A stretch of DNA of 64,000 nt from Psammoneis japonica (GCA_008632985.1 QPGO01000041.1:186001-250000), one strand, 5' to 3'. Shown: positions 2,505 through 61,656, counted from the first letter of the stretch. A program made the numbers and translations. Notes: generated by a model from the letters alone, not told the origin.

Positions 2505-3908
2505 CTTTTGGACGACTAGTAGGAATGATAGGAGGGAAGTATCCTCGCAGCTGGTTTGTCGCCAACCTTAAACAGAAAGTCATGACGGGTACTTTGCTCC
2601 GGCAAAAGAACAAAGTTGAAGTCCTTGATATCATACGCGTGGCGGCGTTGAAGGCTTGAATCACCCTCAACGAAAAATGGAATGCGTGATTGACATAGAG
2701 AATTAAGTGCAAATTTGTCTATCGTCTAACGAAAATGGGCATACGTGATTGACTTGGGTACTGTACGTCTTACAGAATTCCATGTACATTCAATCATTGA
2801 AAACGATTTGTCTGAGCTCCACAAATCACTTGTTGTGTTACTTAAACTGAGCGGCACATTCCAAACGTGATCTCCCAAGTTCCGCAAAAAAAAAAAATGC
2901 TTGGTGCCTCGAAACTCAGAGCAGCTCAAGGCTTCACTCGATGATGTGCCAAGTCAAGAGCGACATTCAACAAATGATGGAATTCTGGTTTCTCGCATCC
3001 ACTCAGTTCCACCTTTTTGAGCTGATCGCAGTTGCAGCCACATGCGCAAGATCTTGTGCAAATTCCTGCCAGCACAATTTCCAGCTCCAATCAAGGGAAT
3101 CCCAACGGCTTCAAGTTTCTGTTCTTTGGCACGCTTCAGACCAGACTTGCATGTCTTTTAAAGCAACTTGTCCTTGTGTTGCAAAGACACATGATTGTCA
3201 TCTGTTGCACAGGTTGGTCCCACTGCCAAGATTGTGAGAGTGCCACACATTTGGCTCCCACCCAAAACATGTCTGCTCCTCTGGGAGGGCCAATCATGAC
3301 TTTTTGCTTCACCACCAGGGAATCAGACAACACCCCAATTGCTCTTTTCCATTGGCTCAAGATGCTGGTGGACTTGTTGCCAAAGCTCTGGGCCACCCTT
3401 GTCTTCAAAAGCCCTTGCAACAGAATCCTCGCACATGCAATGGCATGACCCACATTCTTGGTGGCACAGACAATTGCCGCCATGTGGCCCTTGTCAGCCT
3501 TGAAATCCAAGACCAAAGAACAGCTCCCCAACAATGCACAATGTTTGCCACCACCACTGCCCAAAGGGGCAATGGGAAAATTTGTCCCATTGAGGTGATG
3601 GACAACCACCTGCTGGTGAGTTGTGTTGGTGCAAGTGAGTGGTGGCTTTTTCTTCCTCTTGTGTTCCCTCATGCCACCAACTCTCACAACTCTGCAGCTC
3701 CGCCTCCTGTTCCTTTTTGATCATTTCAGAGAGATGATTGTCAATCTGAGTTTCAAGCTCTTTTCTTCATCAAGACTTTTGAAGAGGAAATCATTTTTCT
3801 CTGTGGCTCTCTTGCTTGTTTGTGCTTTTCTCTGTCAGGTTGTCCCCACAGCACCTCCCACAGCTTTTCCAATTCTTCTCTTTTTGTCATGCACATCACA
3901 GCTTGTCC

Positions 3909-4143
3909 AGTCACGACTCAACATCATCTGGTCGCATGTCACAACTGCAAACCAGACTCAGCCCATTTCAGTCAATTCACTTGGCTTGCTCACAATTCGA
4001 TTCAAAACAGAATCAACGACTTTTGTCACAATCTTTGGACAACGACTTTCACAAAAGCATCTGTTTGCTCTGTTGCCATCTACATTGCTGCCAACCTCCG
4101 AGGTCTTGTCCACCCTGCCAAGCTGCAGGACTGTGTCTCGACT
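3909..4143 (+). repeat. 5' LTR
   Basis: Colinear ungapped match to 10894-11128; ends AGTC...GACT. Confidence 0.95.
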
Positions 4144-4277
4144 GGTTGTGGACCCCAAGTGTCACGCGTTGACGAGTGCTCCTGACCGAGTCATCGTCAC
4201 GGACGCATTCAGTTTGATTTTGAAGCAAACCCGGGAAATCGCTTGAGACTCCTTGCTCCTCCCGTCTTCATCCTGTC

Positions 4278-7200
4278 AAGAACTTGCTCTTTCAACCATG
4301 GCACTCTCGAAGGAAACCCTGGCGGAAGCGTTTGCAATGGCTGTGGCCACAGACCGCAGATCGAATCCTCCACCTCCAACCCCAACCCAACCGTCACGCG
4401 GTGGAATCCATTGGGCTCATGGAGTCTACATTGGTGGTTCCAAACTCAATGACACACATCAGCAAACATCAACAAGAACCTGCCAATTCGCCTTGCAGTG
4501 CCGTCATCCCAAGGCTCTCGACTCGACAGAGCAATCCCTCTGAGATCAGCAAGCTTCCGCAATGACTTCCAAGTTCAATGGTCAACTCAAGATTTCAAAT
4601 GGTCCTCTCAACGAGCTTGACAAAGACCATTTCGTCAGTGCGATTCAAGAGCTGGTCGAGTGTCATGGGCAACAGATGTTCTGCCACGTCAAAACCAGCG
4701 ACGGCACGGTCAAATGTATTTTCAATCATCTCCACGAGTTCTCTGTGACCAATCTTGTGGACGAGTGCAACACCAGGACCGCAGCAACGGACAACACTCG
4801 ATGCGACCCAATCGAGCTTGACAATGTCGGCCTCTCTCAGCTTCTGGTGAAGTCCAGAATCACGAACACCTTTTGCAAGAAGATCGAAACCAAGTTCAAC
4901 CATCTTCCGGACTTCCACGACTGCCCTGGGTCGATTCCATTCATGATGGCCCTAGACACATGCAACACCAGTGCTCTGACGGATGTTGAGACAGCTGGGA
5001 AGCAGCCAGACGAGCTCAATTTGGCCAACTTTCCCGGTGAGGACTGCACGGACTTTGCTGCTGAAGCACTCTGAATCGTGAAAGTCATGCAGACCGATTG
5101 TGCACTTCTGACAAACACTGGCTCCAAGCTGCTCCACAAGGTGTCCCACACGTCGTCTGCGTGCTTCAATCGAGTCATCCACAGCCAGATTGGTGAAGTC
5201 AAGAAGATGGAACACAAGCATCGCCTCAAGGATCCCGCCGCAATCAAGTCCGACAGCGACTGCGCCAAGCTCGGACCAATTGGCATCATCTCTTGGATCC
5301 AAGAACAGCATGGCGAGCTCGTCAAGGACGGAGAATGGCCCACTTTGATTGCCAAGCTTCCAGAGAGTGATGAAGCAGCTGCCGACAACCCTGTCAAAAC
5401 CAAGCACTGCTTCGACTGTGGACTCGAAGGCTGCACCAAGCAAAACTGTCCAAAATGCAACAAGCCTCCGGCTGAGGATGATCCTCTGCCGCCTCAACCA
5501 TCTGCAGACAACCCTCCTTGTGGGAAACGGAAAATCTCTGCCTGGCGCATCAAGTTTGTTGGCGAGACCACCAAAGACTCCAAGGGAAAGGAATGGAAGT
5601 GGTGCGGCAAGTGTTTGCCAAAGGACGCCGAGAAACCCGGCATGCACCAACGTCACTCTACCGCCGAGCACAAGGAGAACTTCAAGCACCCCATGCAGGA
5701 AGCCCCCGCTGGCAATCTCTTGCAAGTCTTGGATCCCGACAGTGGTGTGCCTGTGGGCCCGCCCGCCCAGACTGCCACGGAACCTGCCGATGACGAGTCG
5801 GACCCCAACGAGTTGGTCTTCACCAGAATGTGGTGCGCGGCTGCTGACGCCATTGACGACTCTAATTTCCTCTCCACTGCAGTCCCTGCATCTGCAGTGT
5901 TTACTCTGGCACCTTCGGCCGAGAGGGAGAGCAATGCAATCATTGGCACTGAGGTCAATTGCAACGAATCGAGCCCACCCGTTCTTGCCTCAGTCATGCC
6001 TCCAGTCATGCTCCCAGTCATGGTTGAGATGACATCTCCCGAAGAAGCCGACAACTTCTGCGAATGCTCCGATGCTTCATCTGCGTTTGAGCATGAACCT
6101 CCAGCGATTGAGTTGTTTCCAGCCTCGAAGCTGCACTCCATCAAACATCCAAATGAGTTCTGTGATGCTCCCGCAAATTTGACGGACATGCTGTCAGACA
6201 ACACCAAGTTAGACCTCATTCTTGAACACGATGTGCACTTTGAAGACGCACACGACAACTTGCCTCTGTGTGTCACTCACCGTGGATGCGATTTTTGTGA
6301 CCCAGAAGACCCAGGCATGGATGATTGTCATGAGCACGACAAAGAAGAGACCTCTTCATGTCAGTCTCTGCAAGAACGAGCCAAACTCTTCGCATTCTGG
6401 CTTGCAGCTGTGTTCTGGGAGACGGTTTTGCATGTCTGTTTTGCGCCAATCCCTCGCATCCCTCGCGCTCTACGTTGCAAACCTCGTGAGCTCACTCTGC
6501 ACGGTTTTCCTGCATCATGGATGGTGCTGTCTGTGGCAATCATGGTGTGGACCACGGCGCACAAGGGCATCCCACCCGAGTGCCCATTTTCGAACATTTC
6601 GAGCCGCCTCACAACCGCCAGCTCCCAAGTCCACTCGATTGTCGGAGAGCTGGACAATCGGATTGTGTCAGATGCCGGATCATTCTTCGAACACAACAAG
6701 ATCAAGGGACGACAGGTTCTTGCCAAGTTTGTCTCGCGCCACCCGTTGCACGCGCTGAGCACCCGGCCACAAGACTGCTGGAAGACCCTGGAAGTAGCTG
6801 AACGGTCAGATCCGATTGACGAATCAGCCTTCTTTGACACCTGTGAAGAACTGGAACCTCTCGACGACCAGAAGTGCTTCTTTGACGCTCTCAAGGACTT
6901 CAGTCTGGATTTCTTCCGATTTGATGAGCTCTGCATGCCACATCACATCGTTGATGCTGCTCATTTTCAAGATCCCCATGACCTGTTGGAAGAAGCACGT
7001 GTTAGACCCGCCACACACAATGCATCCACCATCAAGCTGCTCACCGGTCACTCCCAAGCCAACCCACTTGCCTCCAATCCGGTGGCACTCATCGGTCTGT
7101 CGGATGAGCAGCATGATGTGGTCATGGACACAGGCACCACATTGGCTGTCACTTTCGACAAAGCCAATTTTGCTGCCCCCCTGACCGTTCCCAAGAAGCC

Positions 7201-10200
7201 TCTTCAGATGAATGGGATAGCCAACGGTCTCACCATCCAAGGTGCCGGTCCAGTCTCATGGGTTTTCACGACGCCGAGCGGAGCCACCATCCAACTGAAC
7301 ACTGTGGAGCACTGCGCACCCTCCTGTCTCCCCAACGCCTCTTTAACGAAGAGAAGGGAGCATCTGGCAAGTGTGAGGGCGATCAACGGAGTTTCAGAAT
7401 TGTTGTTGATGGCACTGGCAAGTTGGATGCACCGCATCACGACTCAAGCTACCTGCCCATTGCATCAATGTCCAAGGGCACCACCAAAGCTCCTCAGGTG
7501 AACCTGCAAATCCTGAACGAGGAGAATCAAAATCTCACGGCAGGACAGAAGCTTTCAGTGGAAATGCACTCTTGCTTTGGCCACATTAACTTTGCTCACG
7601 TTCAAGCACTTCTCCGCGCTGTTCCGTTCCCATCGAATCGTTTCAAGGCAGTGGCCAAGTGCGACCATCCCAGGTGCGAAGCATGCGAGCATGCCAAAGG
7701 CCACAGACGGTCCCTGGGCTCTGCCCACAAGACGACAGTCCCTGAATGCGACGGGGCCCTTCGAGCTGACCATTTGTGACCGGGTCAGGCTGTCAGCGTC
7801 AATCATTTCGAGTCTCGCCTGCTTGGCCGAACCTTTGACTCCTGCGGTAAAGCCACGTCCCGGCAATTCAAGGGCGGTCGCATTTTTGTCGATCAAGCCT
7901 CGGGCCATGTGCAGGTCGAGCATCAACTCAGTTTCTCCGCTGTCGAGACGATTCAAGCAAAACAAGCGTTTGAGAAACATGCTTTGGACCATGGTGTCAT
8001 CGTTCAGGAATTTCTTGCCAACAGTGGAGCTTTCAAGGCCAACTCTTTTGTGCAACACACACGAGAGCATGAACAACATCTCCGTTTCTGTGGAACCAAC
8101 GCCCATCATCAGAACGGCGCAGCAGAATGCGGCATCCAAAGCATCTCCAACATGGTGAGAGCGATGTTGCTCCATGCCTCTGTTCACTGGAAAGGTGGGA
8201 TTGACAGCTCCCTGTGGCCCATGGCTGTTTCTTGTGCTGCGCATGTCTACAATGTCACCCCGAATGCCAAGGGACATTGCCCAGCGGACATTTTCACCGG
8301 CTCGACAGTGCCTCGCCATTGCTTGTGAGACATTCACACATGGGGATGTCCGGCGTACGTGCTCGACCCCAAGATCGCTTCCGGGAAGAAACTGCCGAGT
8401 TGGGAACCCCGCACTCACCGCGCCTTGTTTGTGGGACTCAGTGCGATCCATTCCAGTGAAGTGCCTCTCGCCCTCAATTTGCAGACTGGCAGCATCACTC
8501 CTCAGCATCATGTGGTTTTTGACAATCTCTTCACTGCTGTGCCATCAATCGAGAGGGAGACGGATCCACCCAATCACTGGGAGCAACTCTGTCTCAATCA
8601 GTCTATTTGCATCCCTCTGGAGAGGACCAAATGGTCCACTTGCACAATGAATGGCTTGCTCCTCCAGAGCACCAACGTAAAGAGCAAGAACCAGCCAGGG
8701 AGACTCGCATTCACGGACATTTTGAGCCCACTCCATCGATTGCTGTCGAGAATCCTCCCGCTCCTTGCCAAGATGCATCCAATCAAGTCACGTCTGCGAC
8801 TCAGGAGCAAACGCCTCCAGTCCCATCTACGACTCACGATGCCATGGCTTCTGCGGAGTCTGCGCCAATTCAGCCACCTGAACCTCAAGTTGGCAATGAA
8901 CTTCCGCCACCTGAAGCGCCGCCTGAACCAACAGCTCCTCCTCTGACCAAAACCCCTGCTGTGTCGAATCCAGAGGGAGTGTCAGGGCTGCGACGGTCTT
9001 CAAGGTCAACCAAGGGACAGCTCAACTCTGCCAAGTTCATGGACGAAGTCTGCTGCAGCTCCGTCAAGGAAACCCCAGTGCCGAAGGGACACGAGGCTCA
9101 GCTGGCACATCTGGCAACTCTCGAGACCGACTTGGATTGTGCCACACTCAATGTTGGTGATCCTCGAGCCCATGCAGCAAGCAAGAAAACCAAGGACCCT
9201 GACATGCCTTCCTTGCACAATGCTCTGAAAGGACCGGATGCCGAAGAGTGGATCAAGGCGATGAAAATCAAAGTCAACACGCTCATCCATCGTCGAGCAT
9301 GGGAAGCAGTCGAGCGCACTCCGAAAATGAACGCACTCCCAGGAACATGGGCTCTTGAACTCAAGCGGCCACCAGATGGCACACCCTTGAAGTGCAAAGC
9401 CCGGCACTGTGTTTGCGGCGATTTGCAGAAAGAAGGAGTGGACCATTTTGAGACCCATGCACCAGTCGTGCAATGGTCCAGCATCCACCTTGTGCTCACT
9501 GCAGTCTTGAAGGAAGGATGGACTGCGCGTCAAGTAGACTGTGCTGCTGCCTTTTGCCAAGCCGACATTGCCGAAGAAGTCTGTGTGTCGCCACCGAAGG
9601 GTTTCGCGCCAAGATCAGGACTCAACATGGTCCTCAAACTTTTGAAAGGACTGTGCGGTCTGAAACAGTCTCCCAAGGGTTTCTGCGAGAAGCTGCGAGC
9701 TGGATTGATTGAGCGCGGATGGGTGCCTTCAGCAACAGACCCTTGCCTGTGCTTCAAGGAAGGGATGATGTGCATGGTGCACGTCAACGACACCGCATTC
9801 GCTGGAGCATCAGCTGAAGCTCTAGAGGAGGAGATTCGCAAGTCAGGAGTCTCCAACGATGAGCATCGCCACATGTTTGAACTTAGGGACGAAGGAGAAG
9901 TCAGAAATTTCCTCGGCATCAAGATCGAGAAGCTCTCCGAGGGCCGATTTTTGCTCACCCAACCTGGTCTCATTGACAAGGTCCTGCGCACCGCCCAGAT
10001 GGAAGAATGCAATGGAGCTGTCACTCCAGCCCTTCCCACTCCTGTTGGTGCTGCCACGGACGGCCCACCTTTCGAAGAACCCTGGGATTGTCGTTCCGTT
10101 GTTGGCATGTTGATGCACTTGGCTGCAAACAGTCAGCCAGACATCGCCTGCGCAACACATCAAGTTGCACGTTTTTCATTTGCACCCCAAGCGCCCCATG

Positions 10201-10872
10201 CTGCTGCAGTGAAGCAGATGCTCTGACACCTCAAGGCCACTGCTGCTGAGGGTCTCATTCTCAAGCCTGCGCAAGATCATCGAGTTGATTGTTGCGTCGA
10301 TTCTGACTTTGCGGGCTCATTTGGTGTCGAAGATGGGCAAGACTCAGTTTCAGTCAAGTCCAGGACTGGACACCTCATCCACTGTTCCGGCTGCCCGCTT
10401 GTCTGGGTGTCCAAGCTGCTGACTCTCGCAGCATTGTCGACTGTGGAAGCGGAATGTGTCGCACTTTCTCAAGCCATGCGCGATCTCATCCCCATCCGTG
10501 AAGTTCTCAAGGAGCTCAACCATCACGTGTTCGGAAAGTCTGACCACCAAAACCCTGTCACGACTCGATCCAAGGCTTTTGAGCTCGCAAACCAAGGTTC
10601 CGAAGATGCACCTGTTGAGCAAAATGTCCTGCCTGCGTCCGTTGTGTACGAAGACAATGCCGCGTGCCTCAAGTTTGCACGCATGCCCAAGTTGTCTCCG
10701 CGAACCAAGCACATCGGCATCCCGCACCACTGGTTTGGGACTAAAGTCTCGAACAATTGGAGATCAACATCCAACCCATCAGCACTCCAGAGCAACCAGC
10801 CGATCAGCTCACCAAGGGACTGCGGACCGATGCGTTCCGTGCGGCTAGAAAGGCTCTTGCATGGGCTGGCAA
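4278..10872 (+). pseudogene. Copia gag-pol pseudogene (TGA stops, frameshifts, Tyr replaced by Cys/His)
   Basis: Knuckle-like CFDCGLEGCTKQNC, protease VVMDTGTT, integrase HSCFGH..CEAC and AHHQNGAAE, RT CKARHCVCG / LCGLKQSP / MVHVNDT, RNase H DSDFAG / EAECVALS / YEDN / KHI. The probable terminal M-G-W-stop now reads ATG GGC TGG CAA (10861-10872). Confidence 0.95.
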
Positions 10873-10893
10873 GCTCTCTCGGTTGAGAGGGAG

Positions 10894-11128
10894 AGTCACG
10901 ACTCAACGTCATCTGGTCGCATGTCACGACTGCAAACCAGACTCAGCCTGTTTCAGTTGATTTGTTTGGCTCGCTCACAATTCGATTCAAAACAGAATCA
11001 ATGACTTTTGTCACAATCTTTAGACAACGACTTTCATCAAAGCGTCTGTTTGCTCTGTTGCTGTCCATGTTGCCACCAACCTCCGAGGTCCCATCCACCC
11101 TACCAAGCTGTGGGACTGCATCTTGACT
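10894..11128 (+). repeat. 3' LTR
   Basis: Follows the PPT, matches the 5' LTR, and is followed by TSD TGTCC. Confidence 0.95.
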
Positions 11129-12082
11129 TGTCCCAGATTTTGATGGTCATCAGCACATCAGAACTCTCTTTCCACTTGGTCAGTGTCCCACTCTCCAGCT
11201 GTTTTCACACTGCAAGCTTGTGTCAAGGTTCGCTTGTTCCACACAATCTCTGTGGATTTCTCTTGTTGTTGTGAGTGTCAACTGGACTCCTCACTCTCCA
11301 GCAGCATTTGCAAAAATGTTGGATGACTGCTTTGCAATGAAAACACAAACCCTTGTTGCAGCAGCAGCACATTTTGGAAGGATGAGAAAGTTGGTGAGTG
11401 TTCCTCCTGGCGAGAGTGCACAGAGTGGTCCCCAGCCCTCCTTTCAAAGAGTTGCCAGCCAGCACACCACACCCAGCCCACTGTGTGCTGCAGTTGGAAT
11501 TGTTCCTGATGGTTCCAACTGCAGCTTGCTTGGTTCAATCAAAAAGGGAGTGCAGGACATGTCACAGCTCCATTCCGACACAACTGAGTGCACCAACTGA
11601 TTGAGGCAAAACAGCATGCGCAGCAAGACACATGTGTGCAAAACTGTGCTGGCGCCGTGTGTTGTTGTTTGTTGGGGCAGTTGCCATGATCCAAATTCTC
11701 TCTCTGTGAGCATTTGAAACAATGTCACCAAAGAAAAGGGACAACAGAATCAAAATGAACAAAAGCAGCACAATTTGGACATTGCGGCAGAGAGCGAGTT
11801 TTGTGCAGGGGGGTGTCACCACAGCAACGCAAGGTCCAGTTTTTTTATCCTAAAATTTTGGTGGATCACCTTCAAACAAGCAATGTTCATTGCTTCTATG
11901 TGACAGCGCCGAGTGGCAAATAAAAAGCCGCTCCGATTCTCACGGTGGTGTTTTGAGGAATGGTGTACATGCGTGACTGAATGAGTCCCGTCTAGCTTCC
12001 ATTAGAAGCACACCACACCAAAACCGAAAACAACGGTCACAAGAAAAAAGACTCGACACACAAAATTTCGTGTCATTTGACC

Positions 12083-23179: not shown

Positions 23180-24640
23180 CTGCATTGCAAAAGGGACATT
23201 TTGGCAATGTCAGGAAGGGCACGTACAGGACTGCGGGATTTCCCGTGTTGGATCTACGAAGCACTCAGAAAATTGTTTTAGGATCCATTGTTTCAATCAT
23301 GGATGCACAGAAGATTGCAAAACGAATCATTGACAGGAGGAAGTTGCTGTCTCAAGAATGCCAAGATGCGCTACAATCGTGTGTGACATGGAGAACGGAT
23401 GGATAAAACTCTTCAGATTCAAACAAACAACAATGACAAGAAACGCAAGCGAACCCACTTTCATTCCAGAATTTCAACAAAGGTGAGACTCCGACAATGC
23501 AGGCATTCTCTGTGTGGAGTTGTGTTGAAAATTGAAATGAATGTCGCCTTTCATCACTGGTTTGCCTCACTTTTTTAAAGTTGTGTCCGACAGGCAAATG
23601 CCAGAAACTGATTTTGTCTCATCATGGTGCGGCTTTGTGATGCCAAAAGGCATGGTTGATTTTCTGCATTTCTCGCGGAGATGTGTTGCTTCTGCAATGA
23701 CACCAAAGCAACCCCTTCTTTTCTTTTTTTCTGCTGCAAGCACTTTGACAACAATTGCGTCATGACGCATGTCATTCAGATCATTGCCATGGCAAATGCA
23801 TTGCCATTGCACGGGACAAGAGTTTGCCATCAAGGTAAATCCAAACAAATGAACAAACCCTGTTGGCTGAGGATTCAACTGCACTCCAAGCTGAAGCCGC
23901 CATGTTGCAGAAATTGGATCATCCTTAAATTGTCAAGCTGCACAATGTGTCTTGCAGTTGAGCCAGAGTTCTTCATTTGGTCATTTTGGCGGTGACGCGT
24001 CTGGTTGTATCTGACATCCTTCATCAACCTTGGTTTGTAAAGCACATTCATTTGGAAAACCATTGCAACAGTGACTCTCACCCCTCCCCACGCGCTGATT
24101 ATGTGCCCACAGGTTTTGGAGATGCTGCACGCACATTGGAGACCGTTTTGATCAGATTGTGTCAAAGGGCAAGTGCTCTGAAGTCCAAAGATGCTGAGTC
24201 ATGAGACAATTGCTTGCTCAGTGTAATTTACCACCTTCAAGCCATTCACAGTGACTTCAAGCCAGAAAAGATTGTGATGATTGATCGTAACTCTGACATT
24301 GGCACCAAGCTGACAGACTGTGGAATGGCCACCGCAAGACCTTTTGTCAAACACCCGGAGTGTTGCGACACCGTCACATGGTTGCTGGACGAGTGAGATG
24401 CAAAGCGGATGCCGACATGTTTTTGTTGGGAGTCATTTGCTGCATCTTGCTGTGGGTGGCAGTCCTCCCTTTGCTGGTGATGCCGCAGGAGCCACCGAAC
24501 GACAAGTGACGTTTCTGCCAGATGTCTTTGCCAATGTCATCTGCAGGCAGCTAAACATTTGGCAGTTTGGTTGTTGCTGGCAGACCCAAAGGACTGATTG
24601 TCAGCACAAGAAGTGTGTCAGTGCCTTTGGATCTTGATTG
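23180..24640 (+). pseudogene. Degenerate Ser/Thr (CAMK-like) protein kinase
   Basis: Ordered motif relics KGHFGNV (Gly loop, about 23190), IHSDFKPE (24244), KLTDCGMA (24307), LGVICCIL..PPF (24426-24472); stops and frameshifts; TA-depleted. Confidence 0.75.
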
Positions 24641-33477: not shown

Positions 33478-33507
33478 ACACACACACCACACACACACAC
33501 ACACACA
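33424..33507. repeat. (CA)n microsatellite with two interruptions
   Basis: Seen directly. Confidence 0.97.
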
Positions 33508-33508
33508 A

Positions 33509-44400: not shown

Positions 44401-44611
44401 CACGTGACAAAAATCATCACATGTGCATGCCCCGCTGAGCAGCGAGTCATTTCCAACGACCAATTTTCCATTGCGCTGCTTGGGTCCAACGAGCTTGCAC
44501 AGTGTGGGCAATGAGCAACTTCACCGTTCTCCCTGAACCGCGCGTTGAATCCGCTGTGAAACAAAACTGGGCTCAAGATGCAACGACAGATGTGGACGGC
44601 GCAGGTCGCGC

Positions 44612-45711
44612 ATGGTCACTGGTCATTGCAGCTGACACAATGTTGAATTTTGTGACCGACAAGATTGAGGATTTTTCTTCTTCCGGCACTTCAACTTGAC
44701 GAGATGATTGAGAATTGTCGGCATCATCGAACACGCACGTCATGTCATGGGAAATTGATCTTGGTTTCGAAATGACTGTGGCACTTCAAAGTCATCAGCG
44801 AGCAGAGATTTGTGGTGCTTTTGCAACGCAGTTGTGTGAAAAAACAATGTGCGGCTGCAGCACGTTTGAAGTGAAAACCAGGAGTGCCATCATTTGCTTC
44901 AAATTCTCTTTCGCAGAACTGGCCAGACCGCAGGTGGGTGCTCATGCTCGACAGCAGCAAGTCAATGCCACAACGTAAGTCTGAGCATTGTCAATGAACA
45001 CGCACGCATTGTACGTTAATTATGTAAAAGGCTACCGCATGACTGACTAGAGCACACCAAAGCAAGTTGCTTGGGGAATTGATCTTGGTTTTTTTAAATG
45101 ACTCGTCGCAGAGATAAAGTCATCGTCCGTTATAGATTTATGATACTTTTTGAAAGATGGTCATTGGTCATTGTAACTAACATAATGTTGAATTTTATGA
45201 CCGACAAGATAGAGGATTTTTCTTCTTCCGGCACTTCAACTTGACGAGATGATTGAGAATTATCGGCATCATCATCGAACACGCACGTCATGTTATGGGA
45301 AATTGATCTTGGTTTCGAAATGACTGTGGCATTTCAAAGTCATCAGCGAACAGAGATTTATGATGCTTTTGTAATGCCGTTGTGTGAAAAAACAATGTGC
45401 GACTACAGTACGTTTGAAATAAAAACTAGGAGTGCCATCATTTGCTTCAAATTCTCTTTCGCAGAACTAGCTAGACCGTAGGTAGGTGCTCATACTCGAT
45501 AGTAGTAAGTCAATGCCACAACGTAAGTCTGAGCATTATCAATGAACACGCACGTATTGTACGTTAATTATGTAAAAAGCTACCGCATGACTGACTTCTG
45601 ACTTAAGCACGCCAAAGCAAGTTGCTTGGGGAATTGATCTTGGTTTTTTATATGACTCGTCGCAGAGATAAAGTCATCGTCCGATAGATTTATGATACTT
45701 TTTGAAAGATG
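44612..45711 (+). repeat. About 550-bp non-coding tandem duplication (units about 44612-45157 and 45158-45711)
   Basis: Colinear alignment along the whole length. Confidence 0.97.
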
Positions 45712-49085: not shown

Positions 49086-49384
49086 AAGTTTATACAGCAC
49101 TTGTTGATCCCTAAGCTTTTGACGTCTATTGTATGTGGCGAGAGCTTCAATGGTGGGTGGTTTTGATGGCATTTGATTTGATTGGTGTCACTCCCTAGAT
49201 AAGATTCTCTCTAGTTTTTGTTTCAAAGAATGGTTCAATGCGCTTGCGCTGTAAGTTCATAACCAGCTCTTCCACAGATCCTTCGATACAGTCAACATGT
49301 TGTCCTTTTGCGTGTCGGGATCGGCGCAGCTCTTCTCGTCCCCTTCTGTTCGTCGCAACGTTCTCTGCCACCCGTGTCGGTTTT

Positions 49385-50215
49385 GCCCATTCCTTGCCCT
49401 TGAACCAACTGTCCACATCCCAAACCTGAGGGTGCCTCGATGCATTCCAATGGGCCCACGGAACCAGTGCACTGTTGTTGTGCCTGGTGTCAATCGATGA
49501 CAACAAGGGACGAACCGGTGGTTGTCCCCAGATCAATCAACTTGCTCTGCAATCCAAGTGGTCAAGTTCAATTGCAAGGATGGCAACAATTAAATCCTCA
49601 CATGTTGTGGATGGTCAAAATGTCTGAACTTCCAGTCAATGCCACCACTCTAACCAACTTTGTCTTGTCCTTTCCCCCCTGTGTCATGCAGCAAGTGTTG
49701 GACTTGACTGCCATCATGACAAGCAACGACCATGTCCACAAATTGTCAGTCACTGGAAGCATCAACACAACACACAGGCCAGACAGGCTGCCCCTTTGTG
49801 TCAGGTCTCAAGGCCATTTTGATGAGTGCACAGCATCATCTCCCTTGTCACAGTTTGTGTGTCTTGGAGGTGCCTCCCGACTGCTGGGAGTGGGCCAAAT
49901 TGATTGCATTGCCAGACAACAATGATGCAAAGCACCCTGGAAGTTGTTGTCATGGGCAAGGATTCACAGTTTTGGCTGGAATGGCATGGGTCCAAAGCCA
50001 CTGATGTGTCCATGTGACCCTTGGGATTGCCAGATCAAATTGATGCTCTTTTACATCCAGAGCATCAATTTTCAGTGACAAACAACAGTGGCGGTGATGA
50101 CTGCACAGTGTGTTGGCACATTGTTCAGGTTTCTGCCACTGCCGACACAGTGCAGCCCAGCACTCCTGGTTTGTGATGAGCTCTTGCCCTTTCTTGCACT
50201 GGCACATCCACTCCA
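49385..50215 (+). pseudogene. 5'-truncated, hypermutated copy of the RING/RCR-FBA gene
   Basis: Aligns to about 31085-31968 with stops and frameshifts; flank homology continues to about 51000 (versus 32745). Confidence 0.95.
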
Positions 50216-51393
50216 GAGTTTGCAAGATTGAATTTGCTGGGTTGTCACCTGACAATGACTGTGTGTCAAGAGATGGCATCACAAAGATTTGGAGTCAGTG
50301 CAGGGCCATTAAACTGGATGAGTGATTTGGAGATTTGATGTCCAGCAGGTTGGATGATGTCATGCTTGCCTCCCATGAGAAAATGCAGCAGATGGTGCAT
50401 TTCATGTTTCATGACATGTTTTTTCTCACAGTTCAGGAGAAAGCAGTGCTGGGGTTGCTGGGTTGACATTCATGTGGGGAGGTTGACATGTCAACATGGC
50501 ATGGTTGCTTGTGCACCCTCAACAAGAAAGCAATGGCAAGTGCAACAAGATTGGTGCTCTCTCAGCATTGGTGTGCTCTGTGACCTTGGTTGACCATTGG
50601 TGGGAAGCACACACATGTCTGTCATCTTGGGGGTGGGGGAGACGGCGACACAAAGCACTCATCCAACCCCCTGCTGTGGAGTCAAGTTGTGAAAAAACCA
50701 CAAAAGGTGAGCGACTTTGCATTTGTGCAAGAGCCAAAATGAATGAATTGTCAGGAAATCAGATCAGCGCTGCTTCAGCATTGGCACAAACAATGTCTGC
50801 CTGGCTTGCTCAAGCACCTCTCCCGTCTAAAGCAGCAGTGTGTGGCCACTCTCTCGGCGACTCAGCGGCTCTGGCTGCTGCTGCTGCCAGCCAGAGGCAA
50901 CAGTGCCCAAACCACGGATGTGAGTGTGCATCACTGGCCTGCCCAGAGCACTGTGCACAGGTTCTTGCAAAACACAGAAGCTGCGCAAGAGCATGGCTGG
51001 CAGGTGTCTGCGAAAGGCCCAACCGGCAAATGAATCGTGGAAAGGGACAGGCGGGATTCCTCAACGAATCGTTTTTGGGCCTCTGGACCATCTGCAATGT
51101 TGTGACGTCAGAGCAACGTCACGTTTGATTGTTAAAAGAGTGTCCCGGCTTTATTGTCATACAAAAGCACGATTTTACACATCAAATAATATACTCAGAT
51201 AAATTCTATGATGGACACTCTATTATTTTTAAATCTCTTGACGTCAATCAGAATCGTGCAAACCTGAAGAAGGAAAACATACGACAACTTGTGTAGATTT
51301 CTACGAGGTGTTTGAAAGCCTCTCGAGCACTCCAAAAAAAAAACTCAAAACGCAAAACTATGTTGACGATGGCATAGTTTTTTCTTTACCAGC

Positions 51394-52494: not shown

Positions 52495-52715
52495 AATAGT
52501 GAGTCGTGTCTTGAATGGGACAATTCGAAAAGAGATTCAAGCTTTTATAAGAGGGGTGGGGAGCGTGATGTGTACAGGTACACTCGACGTATCGATTTCA
52601 TCAGGATTCCGGTGTTTTCGTGAACTTTCGTGTATCATTATAATTCACTAGACAAATCAGAAACTAGAGACCGAATCCTTTTTTCTGAATTCCAGCAGTC
52701 CCAAAACATATTCTT

Positions 52716-53605
52716 CTATGCACTTGCCTTGGCCGTGATTGATTTTGAAACTTCCTCGATATTGGCTTGTTGCGATTTCAATCTCCGTTCGAGGTATTCC
52801 AGCTTTTGCTGCAAATCCGCCTCTCGCTTGGTTTCACTCTCAATTTCCGTATCCAAATACTCGGCAATCTCATCCTTGGTTTGAAGCAAAAACATTTTTC
52901 CAATGCTTCGATAGGTATTGGTATGTTGGGACGACAGACCGTCCAATTCCTTTTTTGTAAATTCGTGAGCCTTGGCTTGACGATTGGCATGGGCAATGTT
53001 GTTCTTGACCAAATTGTATTCACGGCTCGTTTGTAACTGAGCTTGTTGCAAGTCATACAATTCTTGAGAAATGGATGGATCGACCGCCGCGGTGGCTGCA
53101 GCATTCTTGGGGGTAGTAGTCGATGATGCAGTCTTGGAGGTAAATGTGCTTTGCTTGCGTAACTGCCGAGCCTTTTTCAATAGCTTGAGCAGTGCATCAT
53201 TGTTGGGGTCCACCTGAAGTCCCTGTTTGATGGTATTAATAGCAGCGTCGTATGTTTTCAATTCAAGCTGCGCCGTGGCGACACGGTAATACCCCTTGAC
53301 AAAGGTAGGGTCGAGACGAATGCACTCCTTGGCATCCTTCAGGGCTTGGTCCCAATTTTCTAATCCACCGTGCGACGCGCTGCGATTGGAATAAAACACG
53401 TGATTGGACGGATCCAACTGAATGGCCTTGGTGTAGTGTTCAATAGCTGATTCATAGTTTTTGGAGGCAAAGGCGGAGTTTCCGAGACTGAACAAACGGG
53501 GAAAGATATAACACGGATCATGAAACATTGGCATTCTTAGATTGCACAGAAGTTCCTGTATAGAAAGACTTACGCTTTGTATTCTTCAGCTGTTGTTGCA
53601 CTCAT
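52716..53605 (-). CDS. TPR (HOP/STI1 TPR1-like) domain fused to a prefoldin beta (PFD1-like) domain; exons 53605-53574 and 53487-52716
   Basis: K..GN.AF..K.Y..AI..YT.AI.LDP.NHV.YSNRSA TPRs; C-terminal TYRSIGKMFL hairpin between coiled coils; in-frame intron. Confidence 0.9.
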
Positions 53606-54321
53606 AATGTGCTTGATACTGTTCTGCACTGTGTTTATAGATCCTAGGTCTCAGAGAGGATAGCGAGGTGCTATCGTGCAGCGTTTGGAGCTGTTGTTGG
53701 CTGTTGCTTCGTCGCTCGTCGCCGCCATTGTGAGTGGCGAATTAGATTTTTTCGTGTCAACATTCACGAATATTTTAATAATATTTTCATCTGCTCATAA
53801 CCCATTTTGAATTTACGAGGTGTTTCCCGCAAAAAAACAAACGAAAAATCAAATTCTTGCCGCCGAGCCGACATTAACAGCGCCGAGACGCCGCGAGAGC
53901 CGAACCGGCTAGCTAAGCTAGAGTCTACTACTAGCTGTTGGAAGTTGGAAGGGGAAAGTGTGGTTTGTTTTGCATTGTATTGCATAGATCGGATGGTGTG
54001 CAAATGATTCTCGTGATCTAAATGTTGTTACAGTTGAGACAAGAATGCCTCAACGGGCTTCCTCTCTAGAGTTTCCTACAGAGATGATGACACTGATTGC
54101 GAGACTTCAGAGGCGAATTTGTACAGAATGGATTTGCATACAATGCCTGAGGAGTAAGTGGCGACTTACCCCAACGCACAACAGTGCGGACATCTATTCA
54201 CATTTCCGCGAAAGCCTGCACCTTGTCCCGTCCAACTTTCGAAAAAACAGAAAACATGCATTGTGTGTGAACAATTTCACCACAAAGCAGGAAGAATGGA
54301 CTGGATCCTGAAGCACAGTCT

Positions 54322-56086: not shown

Positions 56087-57649
56087 GTCTCGTGTGTTTT
56101 TTGTGTTTCTCTTGTTGTGCTTTGTTTCTTACAAAATGTGCTCCTTCTTTCTTGCGTTTTCCTGCTTCTAGTCGTACATAGAGCAACGTTGAGAGAAAAT
56201 GCGTTTACTTTCAAATTTCAAAAATACATTATGGAGCATTGCGCATACTCGTCGTCGAGGATGAAAATGACACTGAAAAATTGCTTTATCATTTTCAGAG
56301 CTGATTTGAAAATTTGACCATTATTCAAGATTGTAGATCTTTATAATGTAATCAGGGAAAATGAAAAAAGATTTACACGAATGGGCCAGCATCACGGACG
56401 AATGGGCCCAGTGGGGCCCTGCGCAGACATGTTGTGTGATTAGGCTTGGGGTTTTAGGGGGGAGAATTTTTCAATAAAAGGGGGCATCCCCCAGATAAAA
56501 AAATCGGGGGCCCAGATTTTGGAAAGCACCAAGAATGGATGATCAAATGAACCTAAAAAGCTCCAACTGTTGGCACCCAGACTCACCTGTCATTGTGTGC
56601 AATGAACAGAGAGACAGTCTCATCTTGTCCGACAGATGAATTGTGGGAATGCCAGGGAAAGTGCCAAGATGGTGCCCAGCCCTCATCTCTTTCTTGTTGA
56701 CCGGCCTCGGTCACTTGAGCTTCAGAAATGGGGATGATTGCACACGGGCATGAGAAGAGCTGCTGCAGGCAGGTGGAAGCCACAGGTGGAAGTTGGCTCA
56801 TCACCAGATGATTTGTCTGCAACAGGGGTGTCTTCCGCCGTCGCATCTTTTTCATTCTCCTGTCTCGCTCAGTGCACTGCGTGCTGCGTCACCACAAGCA
56901 CCACACTTGCCACTTGCATGCATGCAATGTGCTCACAACCCATGTCTCCAGACAAAATAAACTGCCCCCTCCCGCTCCCCCTAAAAACCCCAACCCATGC
57001 ATGACAGACCCTTTGTTTCTTGGAGCCCACCCACAAAACAACGAAAAAGGGAAATTTGTGCAATCAAGCAGTGCCACATGAACACGAACACGGGATGGGT
57101 TTCATGTGGCAAATTTGATGGCCTCCTTGCAGATTCTGAACAGCATCTGTTGCCAGCACAACTTGCAAACCCGCCCCACTGCATTGGCCTGTGCTGTGGT
57201 CCGTGGTCACTTGGCAAGGGCAGCACCTGCCCCACGTGGCAGTGCTGAGCAGCAATGTGCACACAGCCCTTTGGGATGTCTCGACTCAGTGTTGGGGCAG
57301 GGGCAAGCCAGCAGCACCATCACCATCCTTCTGGCAGGGACATCCTGAGCTGATCTCTGAGATGAGGAAATCGTGGGGTGGTTTGAGCCTTCCCTCCAAC
57401 CAGCCTGCATTGCAGAGCACAACAACATGTGCCAAGTGGCAGCACTGCTCAAGACACAGCTTGAGATGCTTGTTCTTTTTCTCCTTTTTTGATCTGGCAA
57501 GACCTGCTCTGTCAGGTTTTTGATGGATGATGAGATGGTGCACCCGCCGGCTGCATGAGCCACTGGTGCCAAAATGTCTCCACACTTGCTTGCTGTCTTG
57601 CAACTTGTTGGCAGTTGTGTTCTGCTCTCTGTGCTCAAATGTTTTCTTG

Positions 57650-58520
57650 AAGAACTTTGGCATGTGTTTGCAACTCACCAGACAAATCAGAGACCAGAGA
57701 CTGAGCCCCATGTTTTCTCTTTAGCAGCTCCGGCAATCCCCAATGCATTTCTCTTTGTGCACGTGCACCTTGGCTGAACATGCCTTCAAAGCTTCCTCAA
57801 TGTTGGCTTGTTGCAAATTCAGTTTTTGTTTGAGGCACTCCAGCTTTTGCTGCAAGTCAAGCCCACCTTTTGTTTGCTTTGACTCTCAACTTCAGTGTCC
57901 AAATGCTTGAATTTTCTTCCTTGGTTGAAGCAAAAACATTTTTCCAATGCTGCAACAGATGTGTTGGTGTGCAGGGGGATGACAAACCATCCACCAACTT
58001 CTTTTTTTTTAATTCACAAGCCTTGGCTTGCCAGCTGTGTGGGCAATGTTGTTCTTGACCAAGTTGTGCTCACAACTTGTGCTTGCAGCTGAGCTTGTTG
58101 TGTGAGTCATCAGCTCTTGAGAAACGGATGGATTGACTGCTGTGGCAGTGGCTGACAGCCCTTGAAAAAGGTGGGGTCAAGGCAAGTGCACTGCTTGGCA
58201 TCCTTCAAGGCTTTGCCCCAATTTTCTGGCCCACTGCATGATGCACTTTGATTGGAACAAAATGCATGATTGGGTGGATCCTGCAGAACAGCCTTGGCAC
58301 AACATCCAATGGCTGACTTGCAGTTTTATGAGGCAAAGGCATTGTTTTCAAGACTGAGTCACCATGTTGAAAGACATGCGGGTGAGATCTTGAAACACTG
58401 GCACTCTCTTAGATCTCAGATTGCACCCACAAGCTCCTGCATGGGAAGGCTTGCACTTTGCACTCCAGCTGCTGTTGCACTCACAAATGCTTGATGATGT
58501 TCTGCAGTGTGTTTGCAGGT
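57650..58520 (-). pseudogene. Hypermutated, internally deleted copy of the TPR-prefoldin gene including its intron and flanks
   Basis: Aligns to about 52620-53640, lacking about 53100-53290. Confidence 0.92.
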
Positions 58521-59423
58521 CCAAGATCTCAAACAGGCTTGCCAAAATCAGAAATCCATCAAGCCCTGTCATCACTTCAGGAGGAAACCTGCCTGCATCA
58601 TGGCTTCTGCTTGTCAAAACAACACCCTGTTTGTGGCAACCAGTGACATTGTTGTGCCAAAAGTGGGGGAGGAATGTCTTCTCCTTCTGCAATGTGCCTC
58701 TGCTGCAAAGGCAAAGCATGCAGAGTTCTTGCTGTGTCCCAGTCAACACTGCTGCACATGACACCACTTCAGGGAGAGCTGTCAGTGACAGATGACACGG
58801 CCCTGGTTTGTTCTCAAAAGCTGCTCCGTGTCATCAAAATTTGACCCAGGACACCATTGGGGCAGTCAGTGGTGCAGGTGGTTTGGACATTGAGAAGCTC
58901 TTGTCTTGAGCATCTGCCATGTTTGCCAAAGACAAAACTCACAACATTTTTCAAAATGTTTCAATTTTGAACTGTCATGTGACATGGGCTGCTCTCTCAG
59001 CATTGAGATGTCCAATGATTGTGGATGAGTGAGAGCCCAACTTTGGCTGTTGGTGGAACCATTGCAAGTGACTTTGAAGACAGAAGGCAAGGAAACACCA
59101 GGTCTTCTGCAAAAGCAATTCTGGGTCTGTCTTTGACTCAATGCCGGCAACTTGGGCTCACGCTTGGTGCTCTTGCCAAAGTCACCTGCTGCGCACATGA
59201 GAATGGTTGATGCATTGTTGAAAAAAAACACAAGGACATCTGCATCAACAAAGAGAGGGGCTGTTGCTTGAACTCTTGAACTGCACAATTCATGACATCA
59301 AAAGTCACAGGGACCAAGCAGCAACAGCAACACTCTCAGGTGTGACTGATGGCAGCCCACTTGACCAAGAAGACATGCCCATGCTCAGATTTGTTTTGAT
59401 GGGATGGCAACCTTTGTAGACTG

Positions 59424-59680
59424 AGGTGTGGAGTGTTTCTCAGCCACCGCGGGCCAGATCTGACAGTCCATCTGTTGCACACTGTTGTCAAAAGCAAGAA
59501 ACTGGTTCAAGACCATGTCTTTCTTGACAATGTGCAAATGCCCATCTGTCAGCAGACCAGACATGAGGCACATCATGGGCCCACACTAGATGGGCTCATG
59601 GCAAATTTCTCTGGCTTCGCTCATTCCCTTTTCTGGACATGTGCTGCATTGCAGCTTGTGTCTGTTTTGGAAGCCTGACA
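59424..59680 (+). pseudogene. Possible degenerate TIR-domain coding relic
   Basis: RCGVFLSHRGPD (Y-x-VFLSHRGPD if TGT was TAT), followed at suitable spacing by VFLD. Confidence 0.45.
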
Positions 59681-61656
59681 TCCCAGAAACCAGCTGACCC
59701 TTTGTCTTTCAAAACAAGTGGCTCAGACACTCCACTGAGTTCTTCTTGACTGACAGGTTCATCAGATCATGTTGGTGTGAACATGAGGAGCTCTGCAAGC
59801 ATGCCAGACATTGCTGGCTGCAGCTGGTTTGTGGAGAATGTCCCATCAAGGTGAGTCATTCATTTGAGTGCTGCAAGTTGCAGCAATGGTGCTCTTTGCA
59901 TGTGTTGCAATGAAGCCAACTCCTCATGCCACACAGCAGGCTGCAAACAACAAGTCAACAGAAGACACCGCACTGTGAGCCTCACTGGTTTTTGCAATCT
60001 GGAGGAAATCTTGCGAACAAAGGTCAGCAAAGGCACATGTTGTTTTGTGGTGCTCCAGCACAAAACATCCAAGTGTGAAGATCACAGTGATTTGATGAGT
60101 TGCAGCCTCAAAGTCACCCCATTTTAGCTCCATTGGTTGCAGCATCTTTGACCAGGGGAGTGCTTCATTGCTGTTGCAACGCACATTGTGCAGGTCAGCC
60201 TGACAGCAGGTTTTTGCACTTTCTTGGATTGAAGCAATGGCTTTGTTCCTTGGAAAGCACACACCCAAAATCACTTCAGAAAGGCAGACAGATCATTCTT
60301 TGCCTGGAGATCAAGGAAAACCAACTGTCAAGAGGCTCTGGACACCAGGATTGTGGATTGAGTCTGCACCACATGCTGTGATGAGAGGCTGTGGCATGAG
60401 CAGTTTTTTGTCAATTGATGGTGGTGGGGTTAAAAAAGCTGAGGGAGCATGGAGCAGAAGGCGCCAGTCCAGAAAACAACAACTCTTTTTTTTTGACTTT
60501 TCAGACGTTGCTGCTCTGTGTTCTGACTGAAATCCAGGTGCTGGCAGATCACATGCCACGCAATTTCCAAAAATCTCTCCTCCAGTCTGCTCACAAACCC
60601 TTGGTCTGAGCCTGTTCACATGCACTGGGTGTTTTGTGGCAGCTGCAGAGATGCGCTCAAGCATCCAAGCTGCAAACTTGGAGCACGTGCCAACAAGTTG
60701 AGCTGACAAATTCTTGGAAACAGTCTGCTGCTCCCCATGGCAAGGCTCTCTGAATGTGGCCTGTCTTTGGCTCATTCTTGCAGTGTGGCCCAACAACAAT
60801 CCTGCAAGATTTGGTCCTTCAACAAGAGAAAGGGTGTGTGATCAAATCCACCCATTGTTGCACGAGTGGCCTCCTGGGACCAGACCAAGACAATCACCCT
60901 CTTGTTTGCCCTCATTCCAGCATTGACCTTGTCAGGGTGAGGTTGTTTTGAGCCTTCAGTGGTGAAGCACAGGTGCTGACTTCTCACAGATGCGCCCCAG
61001 ACACAGGTGGGAATCTGTGCGTGACACTGGGCCCGCGTGTGAGCTCCGCAGCAAATTTGTGTGGCAATGAAAATGCAAATGACCACCAATTTGCACAGGG
61101 GGGTCTTTTGGCCAATGTTGCATGGAGCCCTGCCCAGGGCCGGAGCACTGCTCTTTCGTGCGGCTGCTTCAGAGAGCGACGTGCCCATGCTCTCAACCCC
61201 ACACCAAGCAGCACAGACAAACAAATTTCCCGTTTCTGCAGTGCAGCACCGGAGCTGGCAGTGGCTTTTTTGTGCCACCCACTGCCTTTGTGAAGCCGCT
61301 GAGTTGAGGGGGGGGTGTCATTGCCCAGAGTTAGCCACCATCGCAAGTTGCAGCATGCGTTGCCAGGTCCAGTAAGTCTGTTATTTTCGTTTTTCGGACC
61401 TCGCAATGTAAGACGCTCATAACCCATTTACGAACGAACAATACGAGGTTTTCCCGCCAACTAAGGCTGAGATGAGCGCGCGGATAAAGGAAGTGGTCAG
61501 TCCCGCCTACTCGTGACTCAGTACTTTCCTACGGTGAAAATTGCGTAGAAATCCGAAGATGACAAAAACGGTCCGATAACTTCCGCTAACAATAATATCA
61601 ACTGCATGTAATGTACATTCAATGTTCTTTTATATGTGAATGAACCACTTTAAGCG

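Follow-up and report, generated by a model that had tools for sequence, protein, structure and literature searches.

Targeted hypermutation as a form of genome defense is well established for cytosine, with repeat-induced point mutation (RIP) of fungi and the AID/APOBEC enzymes as examples. For an adenine-directed, domain-wide chromosomal counterpart there is one earlier report, a 2026 preprint on the chlorarachniophyte Bigelowiella natans (Mettrop et al., bioRxiv 10.64898/2026.01.13.699255), which was also the sole description of TpA hypermutation found in our full-text literature searches. A first-pass annotation of the DNA studied here, made from the sequence alone, had known of no description of such a process; this statement has been overtaken by the preprint, though for diatoms none was found. 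Here, we analyze a stretch of 64 kb with 48% G+C from Psammoneis japonica (QPGO01000041.1:186001-250000; "the window", with all positions counted from its first letter), in which five blocks amounting to about half of the sequence have lost nearly all TpA dinucleotides (TA) in favor of TpG and CpA (TG and CA). We are highly confident that these blocks are the product of a mutational process that is heritable, acts in place at the DNA level, changes A:T to G:C at TpA almost to saturation, and is bounded by domains.

According to the preprint, 231 of the 302 nuclear mutations observed in 15 mutation-accumulation lines of B. natans (Illumina data) arose in two integrated viral regions; 230 of these 231 were A>G or T>C, the authors place all of them on TpA, and they accrued at about 6e-7 per site per generation, in some lines only. 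The same source describes 124 clusters of TpA-poor, CpA+TpG-rich 1-kb windows in the B. natans genome that are enriched in reverse-transcriptase and DDE domains, and it proposes an ADAT2 homologue as the enzyme, citing DNA editing by amphioxus ADAT2. Diatoms, CpG, and trinucleotide context are not mentioned in the accessible part of its text.

Sliding windows of 1 kb across the P. japonica sequence gave observed/expected (o/e) ratios for TA of 0.00-0.12 within the five blocks versus 0.45-0.88 outside. Block limits were set from the positions of individual TA dinucleotides, and counts were taken just inside the edges (31,955 bp summed) with the expectation derived from base composition:

2843..11846: block 1, TA 30 observed versus 501 expected (o/e 0.060), CG o/e 0.63
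20538..24923: block 2, TA 32 versus 304 (o/e 0.105), CG o/e 0.41
32775..45010: block 3, the largest, TA 23 versus 820 (o/e 0.028), CG o/e 0.26
49287..51133: block 4, TA 5 versus 109 (o/e 0.046), CG o/e 0.30
56554..61332: block 5, TA 10 versus 299 (o/e 0.033), CG o/e 0.19

All blocks pooled contain 100 TA where 2034 are expected, i.e., there is a 20-fold deficit over 32 kb, compared to 1329 observed and 2229 expected outside (o/e 0.60; CG o/e 0.97). TG and CA are overrepresented in the blocks (o/e 1.48-1.90), and the G+C content hardly differs (0.47-0.53 versus 0.467 outside). In the blocks, TG+CA outnumber TA by a factor of 69; provided that an equilibrium has nearly been reached, the loss of TA would exceed its creation by at least this factor. 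Stop codons reflect the same composition: on both strands, the blocks have 87 TAA, 60 TAG, and 1603 TGA, whereas an equal length outside has 579, 561, and 1165, respectively (TAA and TAG together: 147 versus 1140). The 32 kb of block DNA contain 88 stop-to-stop open reading frames (ORFs) of at least 110 amino acids, which are free of tyrosine where translated.

The edges of the blocks are abrupt: without any transition zone, a TA spacing of about 1 per 20-30 bp turns into gaps of 300-1276 bp. At the left edge of block 1, for example, TA occurs each 5-50 bp until 2843 and next only at 3159, and at the right edge of block 4, no TA is found over 50828-51133 before twelve follow within 100 bp. The first-pass annotation had described five blocks with TA loss and TG/CA excess, and both the per-block counts and the 1-kb windows bear this out, with its block coordinates correct to within about 100-150 bp. 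The sole long TA gap outside the blocks (384 bp) lies at a G+C-rich stretch with a coding tandem array of 78-bp units (48613-48959).

The direction of change was read from DNA inside the blocks that has an unmutated counterpart elsewhere in the window:

44612..45156, plus strand: tandem copy c1, spanning the right edge of block 3
45157..45711, plus strand: second tandem copy (c2), lying outside the block and not mutated, counterpart of c1
52613..53659 (ORF 52716-53534), minus strand: intact TPR-prefoldin gene with normal TA
61747..62621 (ORF 61657-62514), minus strand: second intact TPR-prefoldin copy, 95.6% identical to the first
57640-58537: dead, internally deleted third TPR-prefoldin copy in block 5
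31086..32754 (ORF 30334-31968), plus strand: intact RING + F-box-associated (RING-FBA) counterpart of block 4 with downstream DNA, normal TA
49385-51008: truncated, promoterless dead copy of the RING-FBA 3' half with downstream DNA in block 4

The cleanest and least diverged comparison is the 545-bp tandem duplicate, of which 397 alignment columns lie inside block 3 and 151 beyond its edge. Inside, 24 TA of c2 read CA (12), TG (10), TT (1), or TA (1) in c1, while CG is unchanged at 17 of 18 sites. The 32 substitutions comprise 23 at TA, 8 A>G changes at A-pyrimidine (or the complement), and 1 transversion; 31 of them are counted as A>G/T>C type and none is a G:C>A:T transition. Beyond the edge, TA is kept in both copies at 10 of 12 sites, and the switch is sharp to within a few bases, with the last converted TA at around 45007 and the first kept one at 45012.

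The older pairs agree with this picture. With the consensus of the two intact TPR-prefoldin copies as ancestral reference, 28 ancestral TA became TG (14), CA (13), or TT (1) in the dead copy, and 31 ancestral CG became TG (15), CA (14), or other dinucleotides (2). In the RING-FBA pair, 48 TA turned into TG (20), CA (19), or others (9), and 83 CG into CA (39), TG (24), or others (9), with 11 kept. Double changes of TG to CA, which are frequent in these older pairs (11/91 and 26/265), call for no further mechanism: a background transition in TG or CA makes TA or CG, which is soon resolved either way.

A different kind of evidence comes from block 1, which holds a dead, frameshifted Ty1/copia element (RVT_2 with E 2.6e-29):

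3909..4158, plus strand: 5' long terminal repeat (LTR), 250 bp
7117..10223, plus strand: frameshifted pol region (gag_pre-integrs 7117-7776, SH3_retrovirus 8329-8943, RVT_2 8523-10223)
10894..11143, plus strand: 3' LTR, 250 bp

The TA-free zone reaches past these LTRs by about 1.07 kb on the left flank and 0.70 kb on the right. Both LTRs of a retrotransposon are identical at integration. This pair is 98.8% identical when read in purine/pyrimidine letters; in four letters, 41 of 250 positions differ, 38 of them by transitions, and CA in one LTR faces TG in the other at 11 dinucleotide sites. About 12 such discordant sites would be expected if around 24 ancestral TA+CG per 250 bp (9.5% of normal DNA) had been resolved independently. 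Since the LTRs were identical at insertion and now carry discordant CA/TG outcomes, mutation took place after integration and in place. This bears directly on ADAR-like A-to-I editing of retrotransposon RNA before reverse transcription, which would likewise yield A>G with a preference for 5' U/T and would suit the LTR retrotransposons that two of the blocks hold. The discordant sites date the changes after integration, non-retroelement DNA is equally affected (the copia flanks, a tandem duplicate of a promoter region, and segmental gene duplicates), both strands are hit equally, and the 3' preference described below is for a pyrimidine, not for G as in ADAR. Pre-integration RNA editing was thus rejected on the grounds of LTR discordance, and we give it a negligible chance.

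The copia reverse transcriptase (RT) offers an outgroup for the direction of change. In an alignment with 21 related reverse transcriptases, tyrosine stands in at least 80% of these sequences in 9 columns, and the window reads histidine (5) or cysteine (4) in all 9, while other conserved residues are mostly retained (proline 12/12, tryptophan 5/5, leucine 22/26). The YVDD motif reads HVND. Arginine changes to glutamine, cysteine, and histidine represent CpG decay, and four threonine-to-alanine changes fit A>G at A-C. Two long ORFs of the element have no tyrosine in 539 and 807 residues, compared to 2.5-4.0% tyrosine in 24 relatives. A protein search with the mutated reverse transcriptase returned 24 matches, all with normal tyrosine content.

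Because the dead and intact gene copies, the edge-crossing duplicate, and the tyrosine outgroup all agree, TA is the ancestral state, and the reverse, RIP-like direction is therefore excluded. The core claim of the first-pass annotation, that TA becomes TG or CA by A>G 3' of T on either strand, holds in each comparison (27/28, 39/48, and 22/24), and block edges and comparisons likewise confirm its view of a domain-confined, near-saturating process on transposons and dead gene copies. It had further set this process apart from 5-methylcytosine (5mC) deamination and called it the opposite of RIP: the first point is upheld by the edge of block 3, where 22/24 TA are converted with 17/18 CG intact, and the second by the destruction rather than creation of TA. 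The possibility that TG and CA derive solely from CG was tested with the polarised spectra and is refuted.

The blocks are host-genome DNA and comprise LTR retrotransposons with the sequence directly flanking them, as well as truncated copies of duplicated host genes. In line with the first-pass annotation, which had listed transposable elements and dead gene copies, we find the copia element in block 1, Ty3/gypsy remnants in block 3, the RING-FBA fragment in block 4, and the TPR-prefoldin fragment in block 5. The features of block 3 besides c1 are:

35448-35738: RT_RNaseH of the Ty3/gypsy remnants (Pfam)
36695-36967: Integrase_H2C2 of the Ty3/gypsy remnants (Pfam)
35933-36654 and 36665-37382: internal tandem duplication

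No Pfam family was found in the 4 ORFs of at least 110 amino acids of block 2, with shorter ORFs left out of the search, or in block 5 beyond the dead gene copy, where 13 ORFs of at least 110 amino acids and 37 ORFs of 62-109 amino acids were searched. The dead RING-FBA copy is part of a segmental duplication of about 5-7 kb in which 25993-32754 matches 45960-51008. Its first half, with a reprolysin-like gene to which the spliced contigs at 45987-48445 belong, has normal composition in both copies (82% identity), and its second half is hypermutated solely in the second copy, which is without the RING-FBA 5' half.

Outside the blocks, the window encodes an O-fucosyltransferase, the RING-FBA protein, an HMG-box protein, two TPR-prefoldin proteins, and a reprolysin-like peptidase. 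The TPR-prefoldin protein has 175 relatives at E <=1e-5 with a best identity of 52%, and the named ones are exclusively from diatoms (Seminavis, Nitzschia, Pseudo-nitzschia, Cylindrotheca, Thalassiosira, Chaetoceros, Proboscia, and Asterionellopsis). Gene content and diatom-only named relatives thus identify the window as diatom nuclear DNA, not DNA of Bigelowiella. A block-wise contrast in composition is typical of foreign DNA, such as viral sequence that natively avoids TA and CG, and a difference between TG/CA and TA can formally be read in reverse, as normal DNA having gained TA by RIP-like CpA>TpA changes. Yet the blocks hold paralogues of host genes from the same window, it is the intact copies that have retained TA, and these have full-length homologues in diatoms (41-52% identity), all 9 conserved tyrosine columns have histidine or cysteine in the block copy, and one block edge falls inside a tandem duplicate. 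Foreign origin and reversed change were rejected by this outgroup polarisation and have, in our judgment, next to no probability.

A modified base at TpA in silent DNA that is misread as TG or CA on opposite strands could mimic the same pattern, and the first-pass annotation had named such a base-calling artefact as a way in which its interpretation might fail. The sole DNA sequencing run with the region (X1) contains 0.92 of the sampled words of 55500-62500, and contigs built from its k-mers at k=31 were compared to the window over blocks 4 and 5, but not blocks 1, 2, and most of 3. They differ by 2 letters and 2 gaps over 48836-52795 (block 4, record 4), by 11 letters and 1 gap over 56923-59638, and by 3 letters and 1 gap over 59614-61494, which amounts to 16 differing letters in 8.5 kb, 14 of them over 56923-61494 (records 6 and 7). 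None of the 11 differences listed for 56923-61494 restores a TA, although block 5 would contain around 180 TA if it had the density seen outside. The blocks have a word depth of 58-64 and the single-copy flanks one of 60-65 (around 60-fold). The contigs thus give a single TA-free path at equal depth, whereas strand-discordant calls would have split the path or halved the depth, and contigs of 1.9-4.0 kb with 0-0.4% differences seem unlike the product of noisy long reads at k=31. Furthermore, the copia element is also frameshifted and CpG-decayed, the dead gene copies have deletions and transversions, and the same type of mutation arose de novo in the Illumina data of B. natans. In favor of an artefact, the library type of X1 is not on record, and the run may be the assembly's own data. 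The TA-free sequence therefore stood up in this comparison, which carries much weight but is not fully independent and extends to blocks 4 and 5 only; we consider an artefact very improbable.

The blocks are also depleted of CG (o/e 0.19-0.63 versus 0.97 outside), a point that the first-pass annotation had left in the background. This depletion reflects decay of CG to TG or CA, which has converted 29/31 and 63/83 ancestral CG in the TPR-prefoldin and RING-FBA comparisons, respectively, and continues to segregate: where the window and X1 differ in block 5, it is mostly by CpG versus CpA/TpG, in addition to one double difference of TG versus CA. TA loss is separable from CpG decay, as seen in block 1 (TA o/e 0.06 with CG o/e 0.63) and at the edge of block 3, where TA is gone and CG intact. 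CpG decay is the slower of the two. At most edges, TA loss reaches a few hundred bp past the CpG-poor core or comes earlier. CpG is still frequent just inside the TA-free zone at 2852-3132, 44525-45005, 49311-49516, 50855-51122, and 60993-61297. The blocks are probably cytosine-methylated and hence silent in the germ line, with CpG decay as the one line of evidence.

The parent copies of the mutated duplicates (31086-32754, 52613-53659, 61747-62621, and 45157-45711) keep normal TA. A further repeat resembles a miniature inverted-repeat transposable element (MITE; 62825-63029); it is around 205 bp long, and its terminal inverted repeats of 34 nt are 88% complementary. Its word depth in X1 is around 3000-14000 versus around 60 for single-copy DNA, i.e., 50-200x, and both TA and CG are normal in it. 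The stretch 62813-63036, which spans this element, is skipped by one X1 contig. Given the untouched parent copies and the TA retained in the high-copy MITE, being repeated is not enough to trigger the process. The summed depth of X1 contigs over 60676-62009 is 496-611 (around 8-10x single copy), and because this stretch crosses the right edge of block 5 at 61332, the respective repeat family straddles the limit of the TA-free zone. Taken together, the process is bounded by sharp edges of domains, spares the neighboring genes, and depends neither on CpG decay nor on copy number.

Three independent readings agree that the preferred motif is T-A-pyrimidine (T-A-Y), with weaker activity on A before a pyrimidine without a 5' T. 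The first is the rate of change. The fraction of A with a 5' T that changed to G is 0.52 for the TPR-prefoldin and 0.45 for the RING-FBA comparison, reflecting the loss of nearly all TA split between the strands. For A without a 5' T (pooled trinucleotide counts), it is 35/120 (0.29) and 71/347 (0.20) with a 3' pyrimidine compared to 6/165 (0.036) and 28/319 (0.088) with a 3' purine. Sorted by 3' neighbor alone, the rates are 0.34-0.36 and 0.23-0.26 before C or T versus 0.06-0.07 and 0.12-0.13 before A or G. The second reading comes from the 100 TA that survive in the blocks, 52% of which are Y-TA-R (R, purine) versus 15.6% of the 1329 in the DNA between the blocks (P 1e-15, odds ratio 5.9). 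By estimate, a fraction of 0.25 of Y-TA-R sites survived, compared to 0.012 of R-TA-Y sites and 0.058 of those in mixed contexts. The third is the choice of strand: sites with a 3' pyrimidine on the plus-strand A alone became TG in 12 cases and CA in 2, and those with one on the minus-strand A alone became TG in 9 and CA in 16 (P 0.006). Neither strand is hit more than the other, and the strand hit at one site does not depend on that at the next. Runs tests showed no strand-coordinated clusters of A:T>G:C (P 0.71, 0.25, and 0.82) or G:C>A:T changes (P 0.09 and 0.57), so the footprint does not stem from long processive single-strand events, of the kind that a processive deaminase of single strands would leave.

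This spectrum permits two other sources of A:T>G:C changes to be weighed. Error-prone patch repair of methylated or heterochromatic DNA by a Y-family polymerase (eta-like, WA>WG) would produce almost purely A:T>G:C transitions beside CpG decay in the same domains, as observed, and the first-pass annotation had named both such patch repair and the A>G changes of polymerase eta at WA. It is a poor fit: polymerase eta mutates A after A about as much as A after T, but A-A-purine (AAA and AAG) changed at 2/63 and 10/99 sites where 27/28 and 39/48 TA were lost. Moreover, TA was converted at the block 3 edge with 17/18 CpG intact, so repair patches at CpG do not determine where the changes fall, and strand clustering is absent. 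We thus regard patch repair as quite improbable. The second candidate is a lesion on the thymine side, i.e., a modified T at TpA in silent chromatin (e.g., 5-hydroxymethyluracil (5hmU) or a J-like base made by a TET/JBP-type enzyme) that gives T>C by mispairing with G or by mis-repair. T>C at R-T-A is the same in sequence as A>G at T-A-Y, the process is strand-symmetric at a palindromic dinucleotide, and dinoflagellate DNA carries 5hmU preferentially at TpA and TpC. However, this explanation needs the extra assumption of mispairing efficient enough for near-saturation, and our literature searches on TpA hypermutation brought up no such modification in diatoms; we know of no thymine modification of the 5hmU/J type there. 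We regard a thymine lesion as unlikely.

The interpretation that we favor is a process with a targeted adenine deaminase at its core. CpG decay and the contents of the blocks suggest that the affected domains are silenced chromatin. In this model, the targets would be methylated, transcriptionally silent chromatin, where a chromatin-targeted enzyme with a TadA/ADAT-like or other deaminase fold would deaminate adenine in DNA to hypoxanthine. Hypoxanthine would be copied as G and turn TpA into TpG or CpA depending on the strand hit, with ordinary CpG-to-TpG/CpA decay proceeding more slowly in the same domains. DNA that is invading or of no use would thereby be inactivated for good, in what would amount to an "A-type" counterpart of RIP and of the process in B. 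natans. The first-pass annotation had proposed silenced chromatin as the target, a DNA adenine deaminase, a mutagenic base modification, or patch repair as the agent, and genome defense as the role; unlike its mutational reading, which is right, these parts are best taken as proposals. For this statement as a whole, i.e., the mutational process together with a silent-chromatin-targeted adenine deaminase and the inactivation outcome, we estimate a probability of roughly 0.55. Given the process, the odds for adenine deamination as its chemistry seem about even to us.

Several observations weigh against this interpretation. Deamination of A and a lesion on the paired T are inseparable by sequence, with T-A-Y on one strand being R-T-A on the other. 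The 3' pyrimidine preference is unlike that of ADAR (3' G) or of eukaryotic ADAT2/3, whose substrates mostly carry a purine at position 35. The independence of X1 is incomplete for the reasons given above, and the differences listed between the window and X1 include no TA versus TG/CA polymorphism, which bears on present activity. Finally, the TA-free signature was absent from metagenomic copia loci, of which 80 were kept out of 442 confirmed relatives: the lowest TA o/e of a whole locus was 0.32 (L027), the lowest of any 1-kb window was 0.18, and the longest TA gap was 273 bp. At positions of tyrosine in the query, the window keeps 3/27 (9 histidine, 8 cysteine), compared to 8/26 in the lowest of the 80 loci. 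This search was biased against mutated copies because one of the two search peptides contained tyrosine; the signature is thus not general among relatives of the window's copia element, which is no evidence of its absence elsewhere. L027 itself (6382 bp; TA o/e 0.32, CG 0.30, TG/CA 1.45; 3 histidine and 1 cysteine at query tyrosine positions) may represent the process in another organism, at an early stage or in a mild form, or else nothing more than CpG decay.

Some features of the window lie aside from these questions. In sequencing run X2, transcript-like spliced contigs with GT..AG skips (introns) of 83-96 nt cover genes at 45987-48445, 51379-52640, 52672-53462, 54588-55123, and 63407-63935, and cover over blocks 4 and 5 is none or next to none (0.3-0.5), which is not evidence of silence. 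The region of the O-fucosyltransferase gene is present as an inverted duplication (12856-14055 and 15626-16930) with 66-76% identity, or 83-87% in purine/pyrimidine letters, and normal TA in both arms. A coding tandem array of 63-bp units (29025-29562) lies inside an ORF with PT repeats (28611-29729). No tRNA genes were found in the window.

The window adds a second lineage with TpA hypermutation to B. natans and shows that the process is no curiosity of one alga. The question of an enzyme mutating adenine in eukaryotic chromosomal DNA thereby becomes testable in major marine primary producers, and a natural enzyme of this kind would interest base-editing work. On a practical level, the long, tyrosine-free spurious ORFs of TA-free DNA are a trap for diatom gene annotation and transposon dating. 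It is tempting, though tentative, to go further and propose for diatoms a chromatin-guided DNA adenine deaminase system by which TpA is erased from whatever DNA comes to lie in silent chromatin, be it transposons, their flanks, or gene duplicates without a promoter, as an "adenine RIP" of shared origin with the process in Bigelowiella. If true, this would be an ancient genome-defense module of the stramenopile, alveolate, and rhizarian (SAR) lineages as well as a natural adenine editor of DNA with a T-A-Y motif and competence for double strands. An obvious candidate would then be the stramenopile-restricted deaminase-SAM-Tudor family described by Iyer et al. 2011 (PMC3239186), who also speculate on chromatin-directed mutagenic deaminases. 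This family is a lead to the mutator of the window, not evidence for it.

Among known systems, fungal RIP resembles the process in the window as a heritable, DNA-level, dinucleotide-specific transition hypermutation that irreversibly inactivates transposons and duplicates and leaves a block-wise footprint. However, RIP changes C to T mainly at CpA, makes TpA, and lowers G+C, whereas the process in the window destroys TpA and gains G+C there; RIP also mutates both members of a duplicate, while in the window parent copies and the high-copy MITE keep their TA. Deamination of 5mC at CpG is present in the same blocks but accounts for the CG part alone and is unable to remove TA. An enzymatic parallel is offered by the TadA/ADAT tRNA adenosine deaminases and the DNA adenine base editors made from TadA, which also convert A to inosine that is read as G and have U/T as 5' neighbor. 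The substrate of bacterial TadA reads U-A-C. An enzyme of this fold (HxE...PCxxC) would act on DNA by way of deoxyinosine, and what resembles it in the window is the motif alone (5' T, 3' pyrimidine). We know of no natural TadA/ADAT enzyme that mutates chromosomal DNA by domain.

The process in B. natans is alike in that almost only A>G/T>C changes occur at TpA, giving TpG and CpA, and in its restriction to regions of non-host or transposon-related, partly silent DNA. B. natans is a chlorarachniophyte (Rhizaria) and the host of the window a diatom (stramenopile); for B. natans, de novo events were measured, with rates of about 1e-7 to 1e-6 per site per generation, whereas the process in the window is known from its footprint alone. 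This footprint is near-saturated, with TA o/e of 0.03-0.10 compared to 0.45 in the hypermutable region of B. natans derived from nucleocytoplasmic large DNA viruses (NCLDV). Its edges are sharp to a few bases and host-gene duplicates and transposon flanks are also hit, unlike in the B. natans report. The footprint further shows that the target is set by domain and not by repetition or foreign origin. The motif is wider, comprising T-A-pyrimidine and, more weakly, A-pyrimidine without a 5' T (8 of the 32 changes in the tandem duplicate), an extension absent from the accessible text on B. natans, and TA loss outruns a CpG decay that takes place in the same domains. What is new here is thus the occurrence in a diatom, a far more complete footprint, and detail on the motif, edges, targets, and order relative to CpG decay.

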